DNA of 64,000 nt from an uncultured Chloroflexia bacterium (GCA_963726245.1 CAVSBT010000037.1:64001-128000), one strand, 5' to 3'; shown: positions 1 to 12,067, counted from the first letter of the stretch. The notes: a model not told the origin generated them from the letters alone. Translations and numbers: made by a program.

Positions 1-637
1 GGTAGTCCTCGCCCACCGCCCGTCGCACGGCGCGCAGCACCTCGACGTGAAAGCGCCGGCGTCCTTCGGGCGAGCCGCCCCACTCGTCCGTCCTGTGGTT
101 GGTCAGGGGCGACAGGAACTGGCTCATGAGGTAGCCGTGCGCCGAGTGCAACTGGACGGCATCGAATCCGGCCTCTTTGCCCCGCGCGGCGGCGGCGGCG
201 AAATCGGCCACGGTCGCCTCGATCTCGGCGGCGGTGAAGGCCCGATGGGGAAGCGGATACGACTCGACGTGGGAAGGCGCCAGGGCGACGCGGTCCGGGT
301 CCTGAAGCATCCCTGTCTGCATCCCCGCGTGCGCGATCTGGAGGGCTATCCTGGCGCCGTGGTCGTGGGCGACCCTCGCCAGGCGTCGCAGCCCCGCGAT
401 GTGGCGGTCTTCGGCGGCGCCGTACTGGCCGAGGGCGGCCTTCCCCTGCTCCGAGACGTAGGCATAGCCGGTGACGATGAGGCCCACGCCGCCGCGTGCC
501 AGGCCCTCGAAGAGCTCCACGGAGGCGTCGGTGACCTCGCCGTCGTCGGTCGCCGTGTGGTCCCAGGTGGCGGAGCGCAGGAAACGATTGCGCATCTCGA
601 GTCCGTCGATGGTAATCGGGTCGAAGGGGCTGGTCAT
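1..637 (-). CDS. NADH:flavin oxidoreductase (old yellow enzyme family), 5' part; runs off window
   Basis: Manual translation from ATG at 637: MTSPFDPITIDGLEMRNRFLRSATWD; RBS AAGGGAG upstream; absent from ORF track because it has no stop inside the window. Confidence 0.85.
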   Translation of the reverse strand, partial: MTSPFDPITIDGLEMRNRFLRSATWDHTATDDGEVTDASVELFEGLARGGVGLIVTGYAYVSEQGKAALGQYGAAEDRHIAGLRRLARVAHDHGARIALQIAHAGMQTGMLQDPDRVALAPSHVESYPLPHRAFTAAEIEATVADFAAAAARGKEAGFDAVQLHSAHGYLMSQFLSPLTNHRTDEWGGSPEGRRRFHVEVLRAVRRAVGEDY

Positions 638-671
638 AGTATCTCCCTTGGAATCTAAGAGGGGCCCGGCC

Positions 672-1151
672 TCACGCCTCAGGGCGGGCGAGCTCGTCAC
701 ATATCCTGCTGTCGAGCCAGTCGAAGGCTGCCTGGACCACGGTGTAGGCGCTCTCGTAGTCCTCTTCCCCGATGTCCAGCCCAGCATGCTCGGTGACGTA
801 CGTGCCGGCGTGTACCAGGTTCCTCGTCTTCTGGACCGCCGACGCGTAGTCGCCGACGTCTCCTGGAGCGGCAGGGAGCCATGTCATGTCCTTGCCCACA
901 TCAATTAGCTCGCCCAATGTCCATTTCTGGGGAGGCTTCGGCGCCCCCCTGTTGGTCTTGGGCACTCTGGCGGAGGCTCTCACGTTGTCTACCTGGCATT
1001 CCGCCATGAGAAGAAGCCCCGCCTCAAGCGCCGAGCCGAGCATGACACATCCCGCCAGGTATGCCCCAATCTGCCGGCACCTCTCGGCTTCGGCGCGGTA
1101 GAGGTCTACAAGCCGCCATACTTCCGTTGACTGTCGTGCGTCTGTCTCCAT
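672..1151 (-). CDS. Hypothetical helical protein with HEPN-like RNLVH motif
   Basis: 159 aa; GSALEA...WTLGELID...RNLVH pattern resembles DUF4145/HEPN-type proteins. Confidence 0.55.
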   Translation of the reverse strand: METDARQSTEVWRLVDLYRAEAERCRQIGAYLAGCVMLGSALEAGLLLMAECQVDNVRASARVPKTNRGAPKPPQKWTLGELIDVGKDMTWLPAAPGDVGDYASAVQKTRNLVHAGTYVTEHAGLDIGEEDYESAYTVVQAAFDWLDSRICDELARPEA

Positions 1152-1621
1152 GCTTCATGTCTCCCGTATCAGGTGGTGTGGGTCGCGAGTCAGGCCGCGC
1201 GGGACTCGCGGCGAAGCTCCTAGCGGAGTCCCGCATGTTCCATCGTCATGCTAACACCGGCGCCGGTGTGTGGACCACCTGGGGGGAGCGGGCATCGAGT
1301 CACTCCGCCTGGAGGCCCATCCCACTGCTGCCACAAGAAAGAGGAGCACCCTTGAGCTGGTGACTGGGGTGCTCAAGGGCGCGGGCGAGAGGACTGTGTG
1401 TGCTGGTGGCGGGGATTCATCCTCTCGCTACTAATACATTCGGCTATAACCCACTGTTTCCGTAGTCCCACGAGGATAGCGCAGACGCCGGGTTGAGACC
1501 ACGAATGGACGGTCCCGGAGGCCGCCGCTGGTGTTTCGCGGCAGGCACGCGCCGAGAACGAAGACGGGGCCGCAAAGGCCCGGTCTTGTCTACTGGCGCC
1601 GTCTAGGATATCGATGTCGCC

Positions 1622-1702
1622 TTACTTGGCGCTCGGCCCTTTCTTGGGCTTGTCCTGCTTAGGCTTCTTGACTTTCTTGCCGCCCTTATCCTTGCGTGCC
1701 AT
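1622..1702 (-). CDS. Small Lys-rich peptide (26 aa) MARKDKGGKKVKKPKQDKPKKGPSAK
   Basis: Manual translation; strong RBS GAAGGAGGG just upstream; imperfect hairpin at ~1561-1587 downstream. Confidence 0.55.
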   Translation of the reverse strand: MARKDKGGKKVKKPKQDKPKKGPSAK

Positions 1703-1724
1703 TGTGTCCCTCCTTCAGTTCTCG

Positions 1725-2378
1725 TCAGGATTGTAACAGGAGCCGGAGCCGCAGTCGAAGGGTTTTGACGCGCGGGTCGGCGCGTCGGACGCCGATAGCT
1801 GGATTGCCAACCTTCAGGATGTCCGCGTCACCGGCTTCTACCGGTATGGCGTCCCCCTGGCTCACATCAATGAAGTGAACGGAGAAGGCTCCAGGCTGTG
1901 GAATGTTGGTAGGTGCGGGGGTTGGGGCTACGGCCAGGGCCGTCACACAGACCCACACGGCGTCGAGGAAGTTCACCGTCAACAGGTCGCCGGCTTGCGG
2001 CGCGGCTGAGGAGAAGCCCTGGAATCGGTTCTGGGCAGCGTCGTAACGCCAGATGGACTGCAAGGCGCTGGACGGCTCAATGGCCTCGACCACGCTCTCG
2101 GTCGTCCAACCGGGGTGGGGGTGCCCCACTGGTGTCCGATTGGGGAAGGTGAGCGCGATGTTGTTGCAGCCCTCGTAGAGGGTCTTGGTAGAGCCAGGGG
2201 CCGGAAGTGTTATGGTGGCGACCTGCTGGGCGCTGAGTCGCGCGCTGATCGCCACACCGCCACCGCCTGCCTGCGCCGAGTAAACGCGGCCCGCCGCAGG
2301 CACCGACTCGAACAGGACCGCCCCGACCGTTGCTGCGGCCAGAACCCATCGAACCAGTCTCGTTGATGCACGCATCAC
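1725..2378 (-). pseudogene. Secreted protein with a truncated ComEC/Rec2-like metallo-beta-lactamase domain
   Basis: Signal peptide, PTPAPT linker, then FSVHFIDVSQGDAI (start of a ComEC-type MBL fold) that breaks off before the HxHxDH motif. Confidence 0.55.
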
Positions 2379-2589
2379 GAGCCTCCCCGTATATTCCTGG
2401 CGTCCACGATAGACAGCTCCGTTGGCGGGACGGTCAGAGGCGGGCTGCGTAGGAATATACCACGAATGTCAAGATTCTTCGCCGCGTCGGGGTTGCAGGG
2501 ATCTGCCCGGTTGTTCGCTCCCCTACCGGGACCAGCACGCGTCCGATGAGGGGGATCGGGTGTGGAAATGGTGACTGGCAGAGGACCCT

Positions 2590-2654
2590 TGGTGGGCGAT
2601 GCAGGCCTTGAACCTGCCTGCCGCCCGGCAGGCCTGTGGCCTTCTGGGTGTAGG
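2590..2654 (-). repeat. Degenerate tRNA-Val 3'-half copy R1 (att-like) with 20-bp palindromic insertion
   Basis: TGGTGGGCGATGCAGGCCTTGAACCTG[20 bp]TGGCCTTCTGGGTGTA aligns to 7923-7967. Confidence 0.8.
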
Positions 2655-2760
2655 GCGTTTCGGGGTAAGCGCTCTGCGGCGTCCCTTCGCCCGTATTGTT
2701 CGACACCTTGCGCGGGAGTAGATTGCATTCATGGAAAGTCACCCGAGAGCAAGGAGATAC

Positions 2761-4044
2761 ATGATGAAGCGCTGGACATTCGTCGCACTTATCCTTTTCC
2801 TCATGGCAGCCGGCCTCGTCGTGGCCGGCTGCTCGAGCTCGAAGGACGAAACATCGGGCCCGACGCCCGGCGGTCCGGTTCCCGGCGTCACCGACACCGA
2901 GATCCTGCTGGGGACGCACATGCCGCTGAGCCAATCGCCGGCCTCGGCCTGGGGCGTTGTCGCCGATGGCATGAGGGCCTACTTCGACTACATCAATTCT
3001 CAGGGTGGTATCTACGGCCGCAAGATCAAGCTGCTAGTCGGGGATGACCACTACAGCGCGCCGGACGCGGTGGAAGTCGTGCGGGGCCTGGTGGAGCAGG
3101 ACAAAGTCTTCGCGATCGTGGGCGGCCTCGGCGACTCGTCGCACCTCGCCGTCATGAGCTACCTTGAGGAGAACGGCGTGCCTGACCTGTTCATCGGAGG
3201 CGGCATGCCGGAGTTCACCGATCCCGTCGTGAAGACACGCTTCAGCATGGTGACCGACTACGACACCGAGGGGAAGATCAATACGGACTATATGAAAGAG
3301 CACTTCGCCGGCAAGACGTTAGGCATCATCTACGAGAATAACCAGGGCGGCTCGTTGGGCTTGCAGCGGACCAAGGAGGGATTGGCCGACTCAGACATCA
3401 AGATCGTCTCCGAGCAGGCTTACGATTTCGGGAATTTCGACCTCACTGCGCAGGTGCAGCGCCTGAAGGCCGACAACCCCGAGTTCGTCTACGTGATAGG
3501 GAACCCGGGCTCTCTGGCCAGCGCCTTGAAGGCGGCTCGCGAGACCCTTAGCTGGGATGTGCCGTTCATGACCAGCGCTGTCTCTGCCGTCGAGATGACG
3601 ATTGCGCTCGCCGGAGCCGCCAACGCCGAAGGTCTGATCAGCTTCACAACGGGCAGGATGATCTCTGAGACGGACGATCCGGGCGTGCAGCGCAACATCG
3701 AGCTGATGAAGCAGTTCGCGCCCAACGTCGAGCCGAGCAGCCTGACGGAGTACGGCATAAGCACCGCTGAGTTGGTCGTGCAGGCACTAAAGAACGCCGG
3801 CCCGAACCTCACACGCGAGAGCGTTGTCGATGGGGCGGAGCAGATCCGCGGTTACTGCTGCATCGCTTGCATTGCACCGGTCAACCTCAGCCCGACCGAC
3901 CACCGCCCCGACGAAGCAGAGTGGCCCGAGCAGGTGGTCGACGGGAAGTGGAAGCGCATGTCGGACACGCCGGTGAGCTACGAGTCGACGCCCAGCGACG
4001 TCACCGCGTGCGAGAACGGGGAGCCGGTGAACAAGGGCCAGTAG
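2761..4044 (+). CDS. Branched-chain amino acid-type ABC substrate-binding lipoprotein (orphan)
   Basis: Lipobox VAGC; PGVTDTEILLG...INSQGGIYGRKIKL..DD.Y (Peripla_BP_6-like); RBS AAGGAG; no permease or ATPase adjacent. Confidence 0.9.
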   Translation: MMKRWTFVALILFLMAAGLVVAGCSSSKDETSGPTPGGPVPGVTDTEILLGTHMPLSQSPASAWGVVADGMRAYFDYINSQGGIYGRKIKLLVGDDHYSAPDAVEVVRGLVEQDKVFAIVGGLGDSSHLAVMSYLEENGVPDLFIGGGMPEFTDPVVKTRFSMVTDYDTEGKINTDYMKEHFAGKTLGIIYENNQGGSLGLQRTKEGLADSDIKIVSEQAYDFGNFDLTAQVQRLKADNPEFVYVIGNPGSLASALKAARETLSWDVPFMTSAVSAVEMTIALAGAANAEGLISFTTGRMISETDDPGVQRNIELMKQFAPNVEPSSLTEYGISTAELVVQALKNAGPNLTRESVVDGAEQIRGYCCIACIAPVNLSPTDHRPDEAEWPEQVVDGKWKRMSDTPVSYESTPSDVTACENGEPVNKGQ

Positions 4045-4111
4045 GTTACGCCCTCGGCAACCGTGCCCTCCTAAACCGCGGTTGCGGTGACCTCAGCCGT
4101 GCAGGGTAGCC

Positions 4112-4227
4112 TGGTGAGCGATGCAGGGCTCGAACCTGCGACCTTCTGTGTGTAAAGCATCTGAGCCTGAGCGCTGTGCAACAGATTCAGCACCCCTGAG
4201 CGAAAACGCGGAAGTTATCATCTGGAA
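4112..4227 (-). repeat. tRNA-Val 3'-half copy R2 (4112-4156) plus conserved ~70-bp arm
   Basis: 45-bp match to the tRNA 3' half, then GCATCTGAGCCTGAGCGCTGTGCAACAGATTC...CGAAAACGCGGAAGTTATCATCTGGAA. Confidence 0.9.
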
Positions 4228-4365
4228 CGGGCGACAGTCGAGGTGCAACTAGCATGCCCGACTGGGAATGAGAAGGCCGCCCCTGAGGACGGCCCCTCGG
4301 CCACCTTCTACCCGATCTCCACGTATCAGCCGCCAGGGCACACACGGCCCCGGCAGCAATGGGCG

Positions 4366-4723
4366 CTATTGCTTCGCGTAGTTGCTCGCGCCGTTCCAAT
4401 CTACCAGCGACGACCGGCTCGTTCCCGACGACCCAAGCGTCGTGCCCAGACGGCATCGCCACTACTTCTCCCGGGCCAATCTCGAACTCGGAGCCATCCG
4501 CCATCAGAACGTGAAGGCGGCCCGAGAGCTGGTACTGGAAATGAGGCGCCTCACACCATTCCGTCTTGGCGATCGGCTTCACGTGTTTAGACCATCTCCA
4601 GCCAGGCTCTAGGGTGATCCGGCCGACGGTTCCGCCCCCAATGTTAATGACCTCCAGCCTTCCCTTCTCGAAGGTCCTCGTCTCGTCGGGCGACTTCAGG
4701 TCCTTCCGCTCGTAGCTTGCCAT
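4366..4723 (-). CDS. Cupin domain protein (one apparent frameshift near 4405)
   Basis: PDETRTF...EPGWRWS..VKP..T..C.APH...PSGHDAWVVG; the alternative frame gives VDWNGASNYAKQ*; RBS AGGAGGAG. Confidence 0.85.
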
Positions 4724-4891
4724 CGTCATTCTCCTCCTATGATGCGACGTTCTTGATGCGAACAGTGGGTAGCTTGTCGCTCAGCAGACTAGCGCCCCAT
4801 CTCGTGGCTATCAGCGTGGCCCTCCCGGTTGCAGCGGTCTTCCTGGAGAGATCAGCACAACACTCGACGCGCGGGTGTCTAACCGAAAGAA

Positions 4892-5200
4892 CTAGGAGCT
4901 GTACCTCTTGCCGATCGTCTCCAGTCCCGCCTTCCGGAGGTCTTCCGGAGTCATCGCAATCCGGAACTTCACGGTAGCATTGAAGCTGAGGAAGAATGGC
5001 TCCGCAAGGGCCGGTATCCTTGACGGCTCCGACACGTCAACGATCAGGACCGCCCCGCGAAAGCCATCCCGCTCGGTGAAGTAAACCGCTTCGGGCTTGA
5101 TATCTTCTAGCGCTTGCTGAATCTTTGCGCCGACGGTGCCGTTCCGGGTAAGGGTGTTGAAGGGTTCCACCGGAAAATCGACGAGCATTACCATGCGCAT
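4892..5200 (-). CDS. Small dimeric alpha+beta barrel-type protein (GYD/DUF3303-like)
   Basis: MRMVMLVDFPVEPFN...KPEAVYF...G.RG..LIVD...IPALAEPFF; RBS GGGAGG. Confidence 0.75.
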   Translation of the reverse strand: MRMVMLVDFPVEPFNTLTRNGTVGAKIQQALEDIKPEAVYFTERDGFRGAVLIVDVSEPSRIPALAEPFFLSFNATVKFRIAMTPEDLRKAGLETIGKRYSS

Positions 5201-5489
5201 GATTACGTCCTCCCATTCTGGCGTCCGACTGGCCGCCTCTCCTAAGCGTAGGGGTCGGATGTGAGGGGCACGTGAACGAGAACCGGTGCGCCGTGAAGAA
5301 AGCATGCAGAATGAAAGGTGAGTCGGCGATGGACCGGGGGGATCGGCTATTGGGCCGTTCCAGGCGCAGGCTGGCGGCTGGTTGCACGCTGTAATCCTCC
5401 GGGGTGCAACTGTCGCAGCCTCAAGCGTTCATTGAGTCAGAGAGGGCAGCCATCCCTCATAATCTGGAAAGTGAATCTGTTTGGAGTTC

Positions 5490-5604
5490 TGGTGGGCGAT
5501 GAGGGACTTGAACCCCCGGCCTTCTGTGTGTAAAGCATCTGAGCCTGAGCGCTGTGCAACAGATTCGGCACCCCACCGAAAACGCAGAAGTTATCATCTG
5601 GAAA
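5490..5604 (-). repeat. tRNA-Val 3'-half copy R3 (5490-5534) plus conserved arm
   Basis: 45-bp tRNA 3' half with variant T-stem; arm nearly identical to that of R2. Confidence 0.9.
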
Positions 5605-5674
5605 CGAAGGCTCTGAGACGGCCGCATTCGCCAAGGACCGGCCGTCGTATCGGGGGGAGCTTCTGCCTTATGGG

Positions 5675-7003
5675 CTAGCTTGCCCGCCAGCGCCTCCGGA
5701 CATACCATGCTGCGGCTGCGAGCACGACGAGCGCTGCTGCCGCTACCGCTACGACGACGTACTGCAAAGACGAGGAGCCACCGGCGGCAGACGAGGAGCC
5801 ACCAACGGCAGACGGCGAGCCACCAGCCGCAGACGGGGAGCCACGAACGGCAGATGGCGAGCCACCGGCCGCAGACGGCGAGCCGCCGACGGCAGAGGGC
5901 GAGCTACCGACCGCGGACGGCGAGCGGCTTGGGGCATGGGTAGGCGCGGGGGTTGATGTAGGGGTTGTAGGCGTGTCTTGGATCACCGACACGGTGCCGC
6001 TGCCTTGGTTCGCCACATAGATGCGGTTCGTGTTGGGGTTGACATCTACGGCCGCGGGGAAACTCCCGACCGCCACGGTGGCGACGACCTTGTTGCTGCC
6101 GCCGTCGATGATCGAGACGTTGTTGCTGTTCATGTTCGCCACGTAGATGAGGTTTGTGTTGGGGTTGACGGCCACGCTTTCGGGGCCGGTCCCAACCGCT
6201 ACGGCGGTGATGACCGTGTTGGTGGTGCCGTCGATGACGGAGACGTCGTTGCTGGCAAAGTTCGTCACGTAGATGCGGTTCGTGTCGGGGTTGACGGCTA
6301 CACTGGAAGGGTTAGTCTCGACAGGCACGGTGGCGACGACCGAGTTGGTGGCGCCGTCGATGACGGAGAGGTCTTTGCTGCCATAGTTCGTCACGTAGAT
6401 GTGGTTCGTGTTGGGGTTGACGGCCACGGCCAAGGGGAAACTCCCAGCCGCTGCGGTGGCGACGACCGTGTTGTTGGCACCGTCGATGACGGAGACGTTG
6501 TGCTGCCATATTCGGCGCGTAGATGAGGTTCGTGTTGGGATTGACGGCCACGCGCTGGGGGTAGCCATATTGGACCGCTACGGTGGCGACGACCGTGTTG
6601 CTGCCGCCGTCGATGACGGAGACGTTGTGCTTGTGCCACCGTTCGCCACGTAGATGTGGTTCGTGTTGGGGTCGACGGCCACGCCGTAGGGCATGGTGCC
6701 GACCACTATGGTGGCGACGACTGTGTTGCTGCCGCCATCGATGACGGAGACGTTGCCGCTGTCATAATTGGTCACAGTATTGGGCACGTAAATAAGGTTC
6801 GTGTTAGGATTGACGGCCACGCCGTCGGGCTTAGTCCCAACTGCTACGGTGGCGACCACCACCGGGCCGCCGCTGGCGCCGGCCGTTGGGGCCTGGCCGC
6901 CATGCGCGGAGATGATGCCTGCGCCCAAGGTGGCGATAAACGCAAGTAACAGCAAGTGAGGAAGGGTGGCTGTCTGAGCTTCTCGGGGACCGGCAAGGCG
7001 CAT
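5675..7003 (-). CDS. YVTN/YncE beta-propeller repeat surface protein with C-terminal TM anchor (frameshifted ~6500-6630)
   Basis: About 7 repeats of VAVNPNTN.IYV.N..S..VSVIDG; signal peptide; S/G/A linker; TM helix plus RRRWR tail; RBS AAGGAGG. Confidence 0.85.
5775..5921. repeat. Intragenic 21-bp tandem repeat x7 encoding a SPSA(V/A)GG linker
   Basis: GAGCCACCNNCGGCAGACGGC-like units. Confidence 0.85.
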
Positions 7004-7174
7004 CTGCAACCTCCTTGTTGGCACGGCCAGGCAGACATTTCAGAAACGAGCCACAAGCGCGGCAAGTATAGCGTTGTCCAAGCGTTTGTCAACCCTCTCC
7101 CCTGGACTGTGGTGATCTTGAGGCACGGAGGTAAACGGAAGTCAGAAGCTGGAAAGCGAATCTGGAGGGGGTTC

Positions 7175-7291
7175 TGGTGGGCGATGAGGGACTTGAACCC
7201 CCGACCTTCTGTGTGTAAACCATCTGGCGGTAAACGCTGTGCAACGGAATCGGGATGGGTGACCGAAAACGCGGAAGTTATCAGCTGGAAA
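7175..7291 (-). repeat. tRNA-Val 3'-half copy R4 (7175-7219) plus conserved arm
   Basis: 45-bp tRNA 3' half, then CCATCTG...CGCTGTGCAAC...CGAAAACGCGGAAGTTATCAGCTGGAAA. Confidence 0.9.
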
Positions 7292-7402
7292 ATGGGGCAT
7301 TAGTCGAGACTGCGACTAGTACCAGTGGAAGCTCTGCGCGATGGGGAGCGACGAGACAGCGTCGCCAGGGGACGATGGCGATTTAAGCAGGCGCATTTGC
7401 CG

Positions 7403-7430
7403 TTGACAGTCGGTGCATATGCATTACAAT
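7403..7430 (+). promoter_or_regulatory. sigma70-type promoter with palindromic spacer
   Basis: TTGACA-N16-TACAAT; spacer contains TGCATATGCA. Confidence 0.6.
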
Positions 7431-7496
7431 GCCGTCATCGGAAAGGGCTGGTACGGGCACTGCTTGGCCCGGGGGCGGGAGAACAAGGAGGGGTCA

Positions 7497-7796
7497 GTGC
7501 TGTTCGCAGACATCTACACCTACAAGGGGAACTTGGGCGAGGAGGACCAGAGGCGCATAATCAACCTCTTCACCAATTGGGCACCACCTGCCGGCGTAGA
7601 GATCAAATCGCACTACGAGTTTGCAGACGGCTCAGGCGGCCTCACCATCTCGGAGGTGTCGACGCCCGCCGCGCAGTACGAAGCATGCGCCGCCTGGTCC
7701 GCCTTCATGGACCAGAGGATAGTGCCGCTGCTCGATGTCACGGAATCCGTCCCTCTCGCAATGAAGGTAGGCGCCTGGCGGGATTCTGTGCGCTAG
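7497..7796 (+). CDS. DUF3303-like protein
   Basis: GTG start after AAGGAGGG; F..W.PPAGVEIK.HY.FADG.GG pattern. Confidence 0.75.
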   Translation: MLFADIYTYKGNLGEEDQRRIINLFTNWAPPAGVEIKSHYEFADGSGGLTISEVSTPAAQYEACAAWSAFMDQRIVPLLDVTESVPLAMKVGAWRDSVR

Positions 7797-7922
7797 TACC
7801 GAAGGGGTCAGTCAGCCTCGTCACCGAGTCACATGGGGTTGGGCCGCGGTCCGGCCCTTTCCGTTTCCAGGCTGTGGCTGAGGACGAGCCGTCCGGGTTC
7901 AGGCTAGAACCGGAGGTGGTTC

Positions 7923-7999
7923 TGGTGGGCGATGCAGGACTCGAACCTGCGCCCTTCTGTGTGTAAAACAGACGCTCTTGCCAACTGAGCTAATCGCCC
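7923..7999 (-). tRNA. tRNA-Val(TAC)
   Basis: GGGCGATTAGCTCAGTTGGCAAGAGCG-TCTGT-TTTACAC-ACAGA-AGGGC-GCAGG-TTCGAGT-CCTGC-ATCGCCC-ACCA; full cloverleaf with encoded CCA. Confidence 0.97.
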
Positions 8000-8018
8000 A
8001 CCCGCTGAGGGCAAGTGA

Positions 8019-8048
8019 ATCCTAGGCCAATCGAGCCGGGCCGGTCAA
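8019..8048 (-). promoter_or_regulatory. Putative tRNA-Val promoter
   Basis: TTGACC-N18-TAGGAT on the minus strand, ~20 nt upstream of the tRNA. Confidence 0.45.
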
Positions 8049-8098
8049 GGCGAGACGCAGCCCCACGTAGCGGCCACGCCTCTTCGCTGTCGTCAAAG

Positions 8099-9286
8099 CT
8101 AGAAGATGCCAGTCAGAGCCGCGTACACACCGAATCCCGAGGTGGCCGCCAGCGTCAACCCCACCAGGACGGAGTAGGCTCTCCCGAGACGGTAGGGCTC
8201 CGGGAGCGCCTTTATGGCCAGCAAGAAGAGAAACCCCAGCACGTTGGGGAGGAGGAGTGCGTTCAGCACCTCGACGGCCACGGCGACCTTCACCAGGTTG
8301 GCGCCCGCCAGGATCACGCCGGCGCCGAGCAGAAGACCCGCGGTGTAGACGCCATAGAACCACGGCGCTTGGCGAGGTCGATGCTCCAGCGATCGCTTGT
8401 AGCCTGCCGCCTCACCCAGTCCCCAAGCAGCGGTGATCGATACCACGATGGCCCCCAGCAGAGCGCCGCCACTCACACCCAGGGCGAAGAGCACGCGTCC
8501 GGCAACCCGGCCCAGGTACGGAGTCATGGTGGCGGAGATGTGCTGAACCGAGTCCAGCGCGCCGTGGTCACTCGCCGAGCCGATTGTCGCCGCTGCAGCC
8601 ACCAGGATCGCGCACATGATGAGTTGGGTGGTCAGCGCGCCCAGCGCGGTGCCCAGGCGACCCCGCCCCAGATCCTCCCGCCGCAAACCCTTGTCCGCCA
8701 CCGCCGACTGCTGAAAGAAGATCATCCAGGGCATGACTACGGCCCCAATGTTGGCGGCAGCGAGGTATAGGTAGCTGGAGTCGGAGATCGGGATGGAGAC
8801 CGAGCCTCGAGCCAGATCGCCCACATCAGGGTGGGCCTGCCAGGCAACCGCCACAAAGGCCAGCTCAAAGGCGCCGATCGCCAGTGCTACCCGCTCCACT
8901 GAGCCGTAGGAGCCGGACCAGACGATCGCCAGCATGAGCAAGACGGCGGCAGGCACGGTGACAGCCGTTGGCACGCCGAAGAGGAGGCCGACCCCGGCCA
9001 GCCCGCTCAGCTCGGTAAGCAGGGCCCCGATGCAGGCGACGGTCAGCGCCGAGACCGAGAGCCAGGCCCAGCCTGCCCCGAAGCGATCGCGGATCAGTTC
9101 AGCGTAGCCGCGGCCGGTGGCGATCCCGAGCCGAAGGGTCAGCTCCTGGGCGATGAACAGGATGGGGATCAGGACCAACTGCAGACCGAGCAGTCGGTAT
9201 CCCCATTGGGCCCCGCTCTGCGCAGCGGTGATGATGCTGCCGGCCTCAGTGTCGGCAAGCATGACCACCAGGCCGGGTCCGAGCAC
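8099..9286 (-). CDS. NRAMP/MntH-family divalent metal transporter
   Basis: GPGLVVMLADTEAGSI..AAQSGA.WGY; IGAVVMPWMIFFQQS; many TM helices; true start uncertain. Confidence 0.9.
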   Translation of the reverse strand: MLGPGLVVMLADTEAGSIITAAQSGAQWGYRLLGLQLVLIPILFIAQELTLRLGIATGRGYAELIRDRFGAGWAWLSVSALTVACIGALLTELSGLAGVGLLFGVPTAVTVPAAVLLMLAIVWSGSYGSVERVALAIGAFELAFVAVAWQAHPDVGDLARGSVSIPISDSSYLYLAAANIGAVVMPWMIFFQQSAVADKGLRREDLGRGRLGTALGALTTQLIMCAILVAAAATIGSASDHGALDSVQHISATMTPYLGRVAGRVLFALGVSGGALLGAIVVSITAAWGLGEAAGYKRSLEHRPRQAPWFYGVYTAGLLLGAGVILAGANLVKVAVAVEVLNALLLPNVLGFLFLLAIKALPEPYRLGRAYSVLVGLTLAATSGFGVYAALTGIF

Positions 9287-9499
9287 CCATAGCCAGGTGC
9301 GGACGCTTGCGCGGCGCCGCTTGGGATCTGCCGCAGGCGAATCTAGCTGGACGATGGTGCGGTTACCCGTCCCTAAGGGTACGTGTTAGTAATGACTCAC
9401 ACAAGCCTCCAAGACCACCCGACCCCGCTGAGGCAGACGCCGAGCGAATGCAGATCGACCCCGCTACCGTGTTGTCGCTGGTTTTGGTCGTAGCTCGCG

Positions 9500-9850
9500 G
9501 ATGCGGCTGAGCAAGAAGACGTGGTAGTCCATGGAGAGGCCGAACAGGATGGCGAACAGGAAGATGAGGCAGCCAGGCCTCGATGCTCCGCACCGCTGGA
9601 ACCCGAGCAGGCCGGCGCCGAGGCCGTGCTGGGTGACCAGCACGAGCAGCCCGTAGGCGGCGCCGACGGAGAGCAGGTTCATGATGACGCTTTGATCGGC
9701 ACCACGATCGACCGGAAGATGACCAGCAGAGGATGAAGCTGAAGCTGAGCACGAAGAGCGAAGACGATGGGCGTGTATAGACGACAGCATGGCGAAGCCA
9801 TGAGGTTGCGCGATGTCGCCGCCGACGAGCACCGCTGGCCGGCACACCGC
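9500..9850 (-). pseudogene. MMPL/RND transporter C-terminal remnant
   Basis: IMNLLSVGAAYGLLV...LFAILFGLSMDYHVFLLSR; short and frame-disrupted. Confidence 0.7.
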
Positions 9851-10575
9851 GAAGGCGTGGAACGTAGTACTCGTAGCCTCCGCCGCGTCTTGAGGCGTGG
9901 TTGCTGTTGGCATCTGCTGACGGGATCTCACGAAGGCCAGGTCTCCGTGGCGTTCGCCTCGTAGGTCGGAGTGCGAAATATGGATCGCGGCGAGGATGGA
10001 TTGAGGCGCTGGACCCGTTGAACCGCGTCGAGTTCACGGGTATCGATAACGACTGCGCGGCGAGATCAGGCGGCGTGAACTCCTGTTCAGTGTAAGGAAG
10101 GCTTGCTTCGCGGAAGGCTGTGGGCAGGGTGCTACGCCGGAGAATCCGGTGTTGATGTTGAAGTAGGGTATGGCGGAGGAAAGGGGCGCGACGAAATTAT
10201 AGCGGGTGGCGCGTCACGTGCGCAGGCGTCTTAGAACCGCCGGAGCTGCTCGGAACGCGGTTTGGTTGCGCTGGATGAATTGAATGCGATTTTAGTTGAC
10301 TTTGTCGCTTAGCAGATTTATCACGGTTGGTAGCAGGGTTAGCGACGTTGCTATCGTTGCGCTCGCGATCAATACTGGTACTGATGGCGATGCTGGTCGT
10401 CTCACGGCACGGGACTATCCGATTCCACCGGGCGGACGCTCAGGCCCGCCCTGGGCCCGGTCAAGGCGAGCGACCCGGCTCTCCGAGTGACGCAGCCGCC
10501 CTAAGCGGCTACACTGGCTCCGCACTTGCCTGACGGCGGGCGGGCCCGCCTGCCATTCCGCATCCGGAGGGTCTC

Positions 10576-12067
<1,492 letters not shown>

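Follow-up and report, generated by a model that had tools for sequence, protein, structure and literature searches.

Here, we propose that positions 1763-7922 of a 64,000-nucleotide stretch of DNA from an uncultured Chloroflexia bacterium (G000:C37:64001-128000, hereafter the window) are probably the product of tandem accretion by small integrative elements at a tRNA-Val gene, followed by reduction to units that lack an integrase and resemble cis-mobilizable elements (CIMEs). The genome assembly, G000, is 83% complete with 6.3% contamination, and the hosts of the element family are soil and peat Dehalococcoidia. The proposal starts from what can be read directly: the anatomy of the array, a family of elements with the same ends, the variation of the array among relatives, and remnants of integrase genes. 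An earlier note on the same DNA had described an integron-like system of four integrase-free gene cassettes, captured one at a time beside the tRNA by a recombinase acting in trans.

The target is the sole tRNA gene in the window, an intact tRNA-Val(tac) (ARAGORN; Rfam RF00005, 74.4 bits). Co-oriented copies of the 3' part of this gene, in direct repetition, begin at 2590, 4112, 5490 and 7175, and the gene's own 3' part starts at 7923; the spacings from start to start, from 2590 towards the tRNA, are 1522, 1378, 1685 and 748 bp. The part of each repeat shared with the tRNA extends over 45 nt, with CCA at one end and the far edge of the anticodon loop at the other. A chance origin of the repeats is excluded, since 100 shuffles each gave 0.00 expected matches for the 45-mer (up to 3 mismatches) and for a 22-nt junction motif (up to 2 mismatches). 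The earlier note had located the tRNA and all four repeats correctly, with identical spacings, and had rightly called the most distal copy the most decayed. The three copies that it described as clean have the length given but depart from the tRNA sequence: an identical set of 6 mismatches among 45 positions, including paired changes on both sides of the T-stem, is found at 7175 and 5490, and 3 mismatches are found at 4112. At 2590, a hairpin-like insertion of about 20 nt lies in the T-stem region.

A GC-rich palindromic insertion of this kind (about 20-40 nt, CCTGCC...GGCAGG) was seen in the T-stem region of some displaced tRNA halves: at 2590-2655 in the window, and in relatives or metagenome contigs at loci L087 (1464-1621), L082 (853-1010), L090, L104 (10186-10359), L055 (8823-8966) and L125. 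In the cassette encoding a binding protein it is present in L090, whereas the window copy at 4112 lacks it. A small hairpin element and a terminator are both candidate explanations.

The 45 nt given by the earlier note hold for the tRNA-shared part; the full repeat runs about 72-100 nt past the loop on the tRNA-proximal side, where the copies at 7175, 5490 and 4112 each adjoin a conserved arm (Table 1). Across 39 distinct arm copies, taken from metagenomes and relatives, conservation is 90% or higher over 72 nt and moderate over about 30 nt more. In units 2 and 3 (numbered outwards from the tRNA), a second arm starts directly after CCA, and a short motif (TTTCCAGnT...ACTTCC) is present in both arm types. 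Arm, loop, tRNA 3' half and second arm together look like an attP-type attachment site. Both att arms are retained by units 2 and 3, only the distal arm and tRNA half by units 1 and 4, and neither by unit 5. We also considered the arm as an RNA or a small open reading frame (ORF) and rejected this, because in the variant arm of unit 1 both copies of the internal direct repeat CGCTCAGG are altered together and the hairpin is not kept, a concerted change that fits protein-binding sites better. We read the direct repeats as putative paired sites of this type. Nor is the arm a known RNA, since an Rfam search of positions 1-12000 placed only the tRNA above a family threshold. Viral contigs gave 0 matches to the arm motif.

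Table 1. Features of the tRNA-Val array, listed from the tRNA outwards (positions in the window).
Feature	Position	Strand	Evidence
tRNA-Val(TAC), intact integration target, attL side; own 3' half 7923-7967	7923..7999	-	ARAGORN, Rfam
Unit 1 (7220-7922) cargo: DUF3303 protein	7413..7796	+	Pfam PF11746, E 1.7e-12
Conserved arm of unit 1, variant subtype, both CGCTCAGG-type direct repeats changed	7220..7291	-	alignment
Displaced tRNA 3' half, copy 1	7175..7219	-	repeat search and alignment
Second (P'-type) arm, tRNA-proximal end of unit 2, common to the integrase-carrying element L077	7136..7174	-	
Unit 2 cargo: NHL/YNCE-type beta-propeller gene, three frames	5675..7024	-	Pfam, ORF calls
Conserved arm of unit 2	5535..5604	-	repeat search, alignment
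Displaced tRNA 3' half, copy 2	5490..5534	-	repeat search and alignment
P'-type arm, tRNA-proximal end of unit 3	5450..5489	-	
Unit 3 cargo: small ORF (4892-5305) and weak-cupin ORF (4187-4729)	4187..5305	-	
Conserved arm of unit 3	4157..4228	-	repeat search, alignment
Displaced tRNA 3' half, copy 3	4112..4156	-	motif search and alignment
Unit 4 cargo: Peripla_BP_6 binding lipoprotein	2731..4044	+	Pfam PF13458, E 1.6e-52
Decayed fourth half copy with insertion, plus decayed arm	2590..2700	-	repeat search
Extra unit (unit 5), without distal repeat; absent from G001	1763..2589	-	

The outer limit of the array is set at 1763 because homology to a genome of the same genus, G001, resumes at position 1762. 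The GC content of the array is 0.619, compared with 0.672 for the whole window. The four repeat-bounded units described previously stand, and a further unit beyond them (unit 5), which had been overlooked, contains an ORF of 217 amino acids (aa) at 1725-2378 with no Pfam match. Of the cargo named earlier, the DUF3303, beta-propeller and binding-lipoprotein genes are confirmed by Pfam and the cupin is weak, but the small ORF of unit 3, called GYD-like, has no Pfam match. The cargo lies on both strands, as reported. The supposed propeller surface protein of unit 2 does have propeller repeats (NHL, YNCE), but its gene is broken into three frames, the repeat spacing of 126 bp shifting to 124 and then to 131; this is either a pseudogene or an assembly error in an internally repetitive gene. 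Promoter-like sites lie inside unit 1 (7403-7430, with a terminator-like hairpin at 7835-7858) and unit 2 (7092-7065), with 11 of 12 positions matched. Contig C37, which holds the window, has no match to tyrosine (PF00589) or serine (PF00239) recombinases, in agreement with the integrase-free array first described. Thus, as in tandem islands at tRNA genes, the units are bounded by repeats of the tRNA 3' part with the intact tRNA at the proximal end, and the earlier view of units delimited by site-specific recombination junctions at the anticodon loop, without an integrase, is borne out.

The array is variable among relatives. The arm motif was found in 10 of the 18 genomes of the taxonomic family f1 (0 matches for a reversed control), in 12 loci of metagenome-assembled genomes (MAGs) titled Dehalococcoidia or Chloroflexia, and in 29 metagenome contigs. 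At 21 loci a tRNA-Val(tac) is followed by 1-5 arm-bearing repeats, among them two genomes assembled as single contigs, with five repeats in G009 and four in G011. From 52 loci we cut 58 repeat-bounded cassettes with a median length of 1170 bp (57 of them no longer than 2.5 kb), which by DNA clustering gave 8 shared clusters and 27 singletons; a single cassette carried an integrase. Their cargo includes DUF3303 proteins, a Peripla_BP_6 lipoprotein, NHL and RCC1 repeat proteins, DUF3089 and Abhydrolase_3 hydrolases, a cohesin-like match below the Pfam cut-off, and many ORFs without a Pfam match. A cassette that is 99% identical between G015 and L092 stands in differing contexts. In G001, the tRNA is followed by 154 bp with an integrase remnant and then by the flank that corresponds to the window from 1762, so that on this comparative evidence the site is nearly empty. 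The number and content of cassettes therefore differ among relatives, rather than showing the identical fixed content that would have spoken against the earlier note.

Elements that carry their own integrase share the ends of these cassettes. On the metagenome contig L077, a unit of 4391 bp reads, in order, tRNA-Val, second arm, integrase, DUF4760 protein, 83-aa gene, Rep_trans, beta-flower protein, and arm with loop and tRNA half. Its integrase is a Xer-like tyrosine recombinase of 302 aa (PF00589, 94.7 bits) with a SAM-like N-terminal domain, and its Rep_trans protein (PF02486, 73.8 bits) is preceded by the 83-aa gene (phrog_2842). The layout of L091 is identical: its integrase shares 82% identity with the L077 enzyme, its cargo is an NHL propeller, and its arm lies at the contig end; the Rep match is weak (PF23343, 20.8 bits, below the 27.8-bit cutoff). 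A Rep and the 83-aa gene also stand ahead of arms in L089 and L095. Both integrase-carrying elements are small (4.4-5.3 kb). The pairing of an integrase with a relaxase or rolling-circle-type Rep, characteristic of integrative mobilizable elements (IMEs), is seen in L077 (PF00589, PF02486), and in L091 with its weaker Rep. A cognate integrase, the other hallmark of tandem islands at tRNA genes, is present only in relatives, in members with the same att ends. A search for a tyrosine integrase beside the arm motif, as the earlier note had suggested, thus succeeds in L077 and L091 and finds none in G000. The recombinase that it supposed to act in trans has a counterpart in these enzymes, but one that is carried by the elements and is no dedicated host enzyme.

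The integrase belongs to a very large environmental family: among 8000 candidates scored, 6387 proteins had E values of at most 1e-40. At least 16 clusters among the matches listed are 75% or more identical to the L077 integrase, all of them on contigs of 8.7 kb or less. The 12 best homologues in relatives are only 37-58% identical and all 12 adjoin other tRNA genes (tRNA-Gly, Phe, Pro and Arg), for which reasons we rejected them as the tRNA-Val enzyme. Since homologues adjoin other tRNA genes, the target specificity of the integrase appears to vary by subfamily. At these loci (L109-L120) the neighbours are tRNA-Gly(tcc), Phe, Pro(ggg), Arg(tct) and Gly(ccc), and in 10 of the 12 the homologue lies on the 5' side of the tRNA in divergent orientation. 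In G000 (C30:190062; C30:195958-195989), a displaced 5' part of tRNA-Gly(tcc) lies 5.9 kb upstream. Such loci suggest integrase subfamilies that insert into the 5' half of a tRNA.

A second candidate enzyme was also rejected. A 310-aa tyrosine recombinase lies next to the array of G002 (L054 9373-10302) and also in G009 (L057 8663-9595), with about 70-90% identity between copies. It is multicopy, often fragmented and present in 28 of 61 genomes of the order (a tally that includes the unpublished genome G045, which also enters the count of relatives searched for homologues of the L077 integrase and on which no conclusion rests), and it is missing from the arm-bearing G010, G012 and G015; in G000 it is represented only by a 54-residue fragment (C27:11700-11858). 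It behaves like an independent mobile element.

The existence of units with an integrase and the same ends also largely refutes the idea that the repeat itself is what moves or duplicates, whether as a tRNA-derived miniature element, by segmental duplication or by gene conversion, or that it is an assembly artefact, with ordinary chromosomal genes in between. In favour of such an origin, arm-bearing copies occur at 5 further loci away from an intact tRNA-Val in the single-contig G009, one arm copy lies within a tRNA-Phe island in G012, and many metagenome contigs end at the repeat. Yet the copies are co-oriented and start exactly at the anticodon loop, many independently made assemblies and one single-contig genome have arrays at this tRNA, G001 lacks the entire array, with precise flanks, and the GC content of the array is 5 points under that of the window. 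We consider this explanation very improbable.

Signs of reduction are found in relatives and in one unit of the window. C-terminal remnants of the integrase adjoin tRNA-Val or copies of its half in 7 of the 9 loci tested (L131 in G001, L088, L104, L103, L130 in G015, L081 and L092), and in neither the window nor contig C42 of G000. The cargo of unit 2 has about 76% DNA identity to that of L091, and unit 2 resembles a reduced L091-type element. Units 2 and 3 show the pattern that defines CIMEs, with integration genes lost and both att sites kept, and we call the G000 units CIME-like because integrase and Rep would have been lost while junction sites were kept. The earlier note had held that its view would fail if the units proved to be deletion remnants of large islands with integrases; this applies in part, given the likeness of unit 2 to a reduced L091-type element and the integrase remnants at seven related loci, but the parents are small.

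How might such an array arise? In the autonomous members, attP would consist of the arm, the anticodon loop, the tRNA 3' half and the second arm, and the gene plan is an integrase next to the tRNA, then cargo, then the 83-aa partner with a rolling-circle Rep (Rep_trans), and the conserved arm at the far end. Crossover would take place presumably at or near the anticodon loop; integration would rebuild the tRNA and leave the arm, the loop and the old 3' half at the distal junction. We infer that newcomers would enter at the tRNA and older units shift outwards. The units of G000 would have shed integrase and Rep, retaining 1-2 cargo genes plus junction sites, and units may be lost through recombination between repeats. 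Any further movement would require an integrase from an autonomous relative, and such present-day mobility, by mobilisation in trans, is possible.

The order of cassettes is in part what this scheme predicts. Fifteen arrays, namely that of the window and 14 of the 52 mapped related loci, have the binding-protein cassette (unit 4) in the final or penultimate place, always in one orientation and with 79-97% aa identity; its distal repeat is decayed in G000 and well kept in L100. By this placement, the cassette is best seen as an old resident, with the tRNA-proximal units younger and lineage-specific. Moreover, the L077 element lies between the tRNA and the cassette type placed first in L084, L094, L103 and G014, as would follow from insertion of newcomers at the tRNA. 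That units were added at the tRNA, as the earlier note had proposed, is supported.

Several observations weigh against accretion and decay as the whole account. In G000 the small ORF of unit 3 lies on the tRNA side of the binding-protein cassette, and in G011 on the far side (aa identity between the two genomes is 87% for the small ORF and 81% for the binding protein). The DUF3303 module, which comes first in G000, is internal in G011 and, in G014 and G016, inverted within another cassette backbone. Insertion at the tRNA and deletion alone do not explain this conflicting module order; independent acquisitions or movement of integrase-less modules are needed. The conservation of the 72-nt arm at 90% or more in 39 copies exceeds what simple decay predicts, and may point to continuing use. 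Among 60 relatives, including the two single-contig genomes with arrays, no integrase is more than 58% identical to that of L077. The integrase, Rep and 83-aa gene of the family are absent from the whole G000 assembly, at 83% completeness, and the window holds no remnants of them, so that a reduced origin of units 1, 3, 4 and 5 is argued by analogy only.

These same observations would suit an active stockpile, in which functional non-autonomous cassettes are excised, exchanged and re-inserted by a helper integrase acting in trans, with the tRNA serving as attI. The conserved arm and the order conflicts of the small ORF and the DUF3303 module between G000 and G011 are what it expects, although independent acquisitions could also give the latter; it also gains from the two arms kept by units 2 and 3, the uniformly small cassettes (median 1170 bp) and the 99% identical cassette in differing contexts in G015 and L092. 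In addition, short contigs from four public sequencing runs diverge exactly at 4112, 4124, 4224 and 4227. The many continuations piling up at these positions fit diverse neighbours at repeat edges; none of the public runs contained more than 0.25 of the sampled words, the contigs are short, and the two sides of a joint reach at most 63 letters, mostly in repeats, so that they gave no trustworthy joint for excision or an empty site. No excised circle or empty-site read was seen in this material, which consists of short contigs only and no raw reads, and by a check for terminal overlaps none of the 29 metagenome contigs is circular. The helper integrase is absent from G000 and from the 60 relatives searched, a strict match to the second arm is found at only 13 of 79 boundaries, in several arrays the tRNA halves border on truncated integrase genes, as expected of decay, and the integron hallmarks examined below are lacking. 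We therefore judge an active stockpile unlikely, and accretion followed by reduction the better account. At a similarly low level of confidence, we put forward tentatively that the units could be cassettes with cis-acting sites only (the att arms, with a Rep origin perhaps lying inside the nearly invariant 72-nt arm), moved and replicated across strains and genera by rare helpers that supply integrase and Rep. If true, tRNA-Val would anchor an integron-like pool of genes shared at the population level by soil Dehalococcoidia.

Integrons and clusters of attC sites lacking integron-integrases (CALINs) are arrays of short, mostly one-gene cassettes of unrelated functions, with no recombinase within the cassettes. 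The tRNA-Val array is like them in having short, unrelated, recombinase-free cassettes that vary among relatives (58 cassettes, median 1170 bp). Unlike integrons, it has no adjoining IntI-type integrase: none is present on C37 and none is conserved beside the arrays of relatives, and the recombinase neighbouring the G002 array is not tied to the arms and is spread across the order. Nor is there an attC-type single-strand fold, since none of six folds (three junctions, both strands) was better than shuffled sequences (z -0.40 to +1.78). The cassettes are not co-oriented and promoterless behind a common promoter, given that cargo lies on both strands and units 1 and 2 have promoter-like sites. 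The junctions are derived from a tRNA, and the recombinase is found on mobile members of the family. With three defining features of integrons missing, the integron-like system of the earlier note survives as an analogy only.

The closest precedents lie elsewhere: in the ssrA islands of Dehalococcoides, streptococcal CIMEs and tycheposon islands. The ssrA islands stand in tandem downstream of a single small-RNA gene, whose 3' end is repeated directly at their boundaries; each repeat has a conserved motif beside it, and some of the islands have no integration module and were proposed to be cis-mobilizable (McMurdie et al. 2011, PMC3146451). They thus share with our array the bacterial class, tandem repeat-bounded units, a motif per repeat and an integration module that is sometimes missing. 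They differ in their described 20-bp repeat, CcrB-like serine recombinase, six-gene module, much larger size and rdhA cargo (PMC3146451), whereas here the site is tRNA-Val, with a 45-nt repeat and a 72-nt arm, a Xer-like tyrosine integrase with Rep_trans, and units of about 1 kb. CIMEs, reviewed along with tandem accretion of ICE/IME-type elements, are described as decayed elements that have lost integration and transfer genes and kept attL and attR, mainly in Firmicutes and from larger conjugative or mobilizable elements, with cis-mobilisation shown by experiment (PMC5704250); compared with that account, our units are far smaller and more numerous per site. The tycheposon islands of Prochlorococcus are, from their description, tRNA-anchored, with newcomers pushing older elements inward, scattered partial tRNAs, fragmented integrases and cargo-bearing elements (bioRxiv 10.1101/2020.12.28.424599); accretion is likewise anchored at a tRNA here, in a different phylum and by a different element family. 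Streptococcal IMEs have been reported to pair a tyrosine integrase with a Rep_trans/MobT relaxase (PMC5357655). By that report, L077 and L091 resemble them in being compact and in combining a tyrosine integrase with a predicted PF02486 Rep_trans protein, and differ in having integrase and Rep at opposite ends and no coupling protein identified. A literature search, supplements aside, found no description of a tRNA-Val element family with a Xer-like integrase and Rep_trans. The array is a clear example of a known mode of collecting foreign genes, and not a new integron-like machine.

Some further observations concern related loci and other tRNA genes. In G009, a second array of three cassettes (L049 7365-11382; G009:C1, about 1919364-1923381) begins at the loop and 3' half without a tRNA 5' half, and single arms lie at four other sites (L050-L053); these may be secondary sites or translocated pieces. 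In L124 (G014) and L125 (G016), the first cassette after the tRNA or half opens with a T-arm and acceptor fragment of another tRNA (GGTTCGAATCC type), which may be a trace of an earlier or nested insertion of an element with a different target. The 4.8-kb contig C42 (G000:C42:1-4844, L016) begins inside a fifth arm and half, has no integrase, and carries island-type cargo (ATC_hydrolase-like, ADP-ribosylglycohydrolase, beta-lactamase-fragment and HEPN genes). Because of the 6.3% contamination of the MAG, C42 is left without assignment; the candidates are the array as it stands in another strain, a further locus, or DNA of another organism. Further scars of integration at tRNA genes in G000 are exact copies of 39-40 nt of the tRNA-Met(cat) 3' end (G000:C26:1945-1984, C27:63153-63191) and, for tRNA-Gly(ccc), incomplete copies of its two ends (C38:109249-109273, C38:114025-114062), yet no other array of three or more was found there. 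ARAGORN also reports two tRNA-SeC genes in the MAG (C19:83807-83904, C31:67872-67969), which may reflect the contamination or a real duplication.

Our findings account for 6 kb of strain-variable DNA in an uncultured Dehalococcoidia lineage of soil and peat and identify a small family of tRNA-Val-specific elements with a Xer-like integrase and Rep_trans. The arrays of this family hold full elements, reduced cassettes, integrase stumps and, in a sister genome, a near-empty site; through these coexisting forms they provide a compact natural series for how an element shrinks to single-gene modules and for how far such modules retain mobilisability. Their cargo of binding lipoproteins, propeller and RCC1 repeat proteins, and hydrolases suggests that the arrays may serve the exchange of cell-surface and uptake functions.

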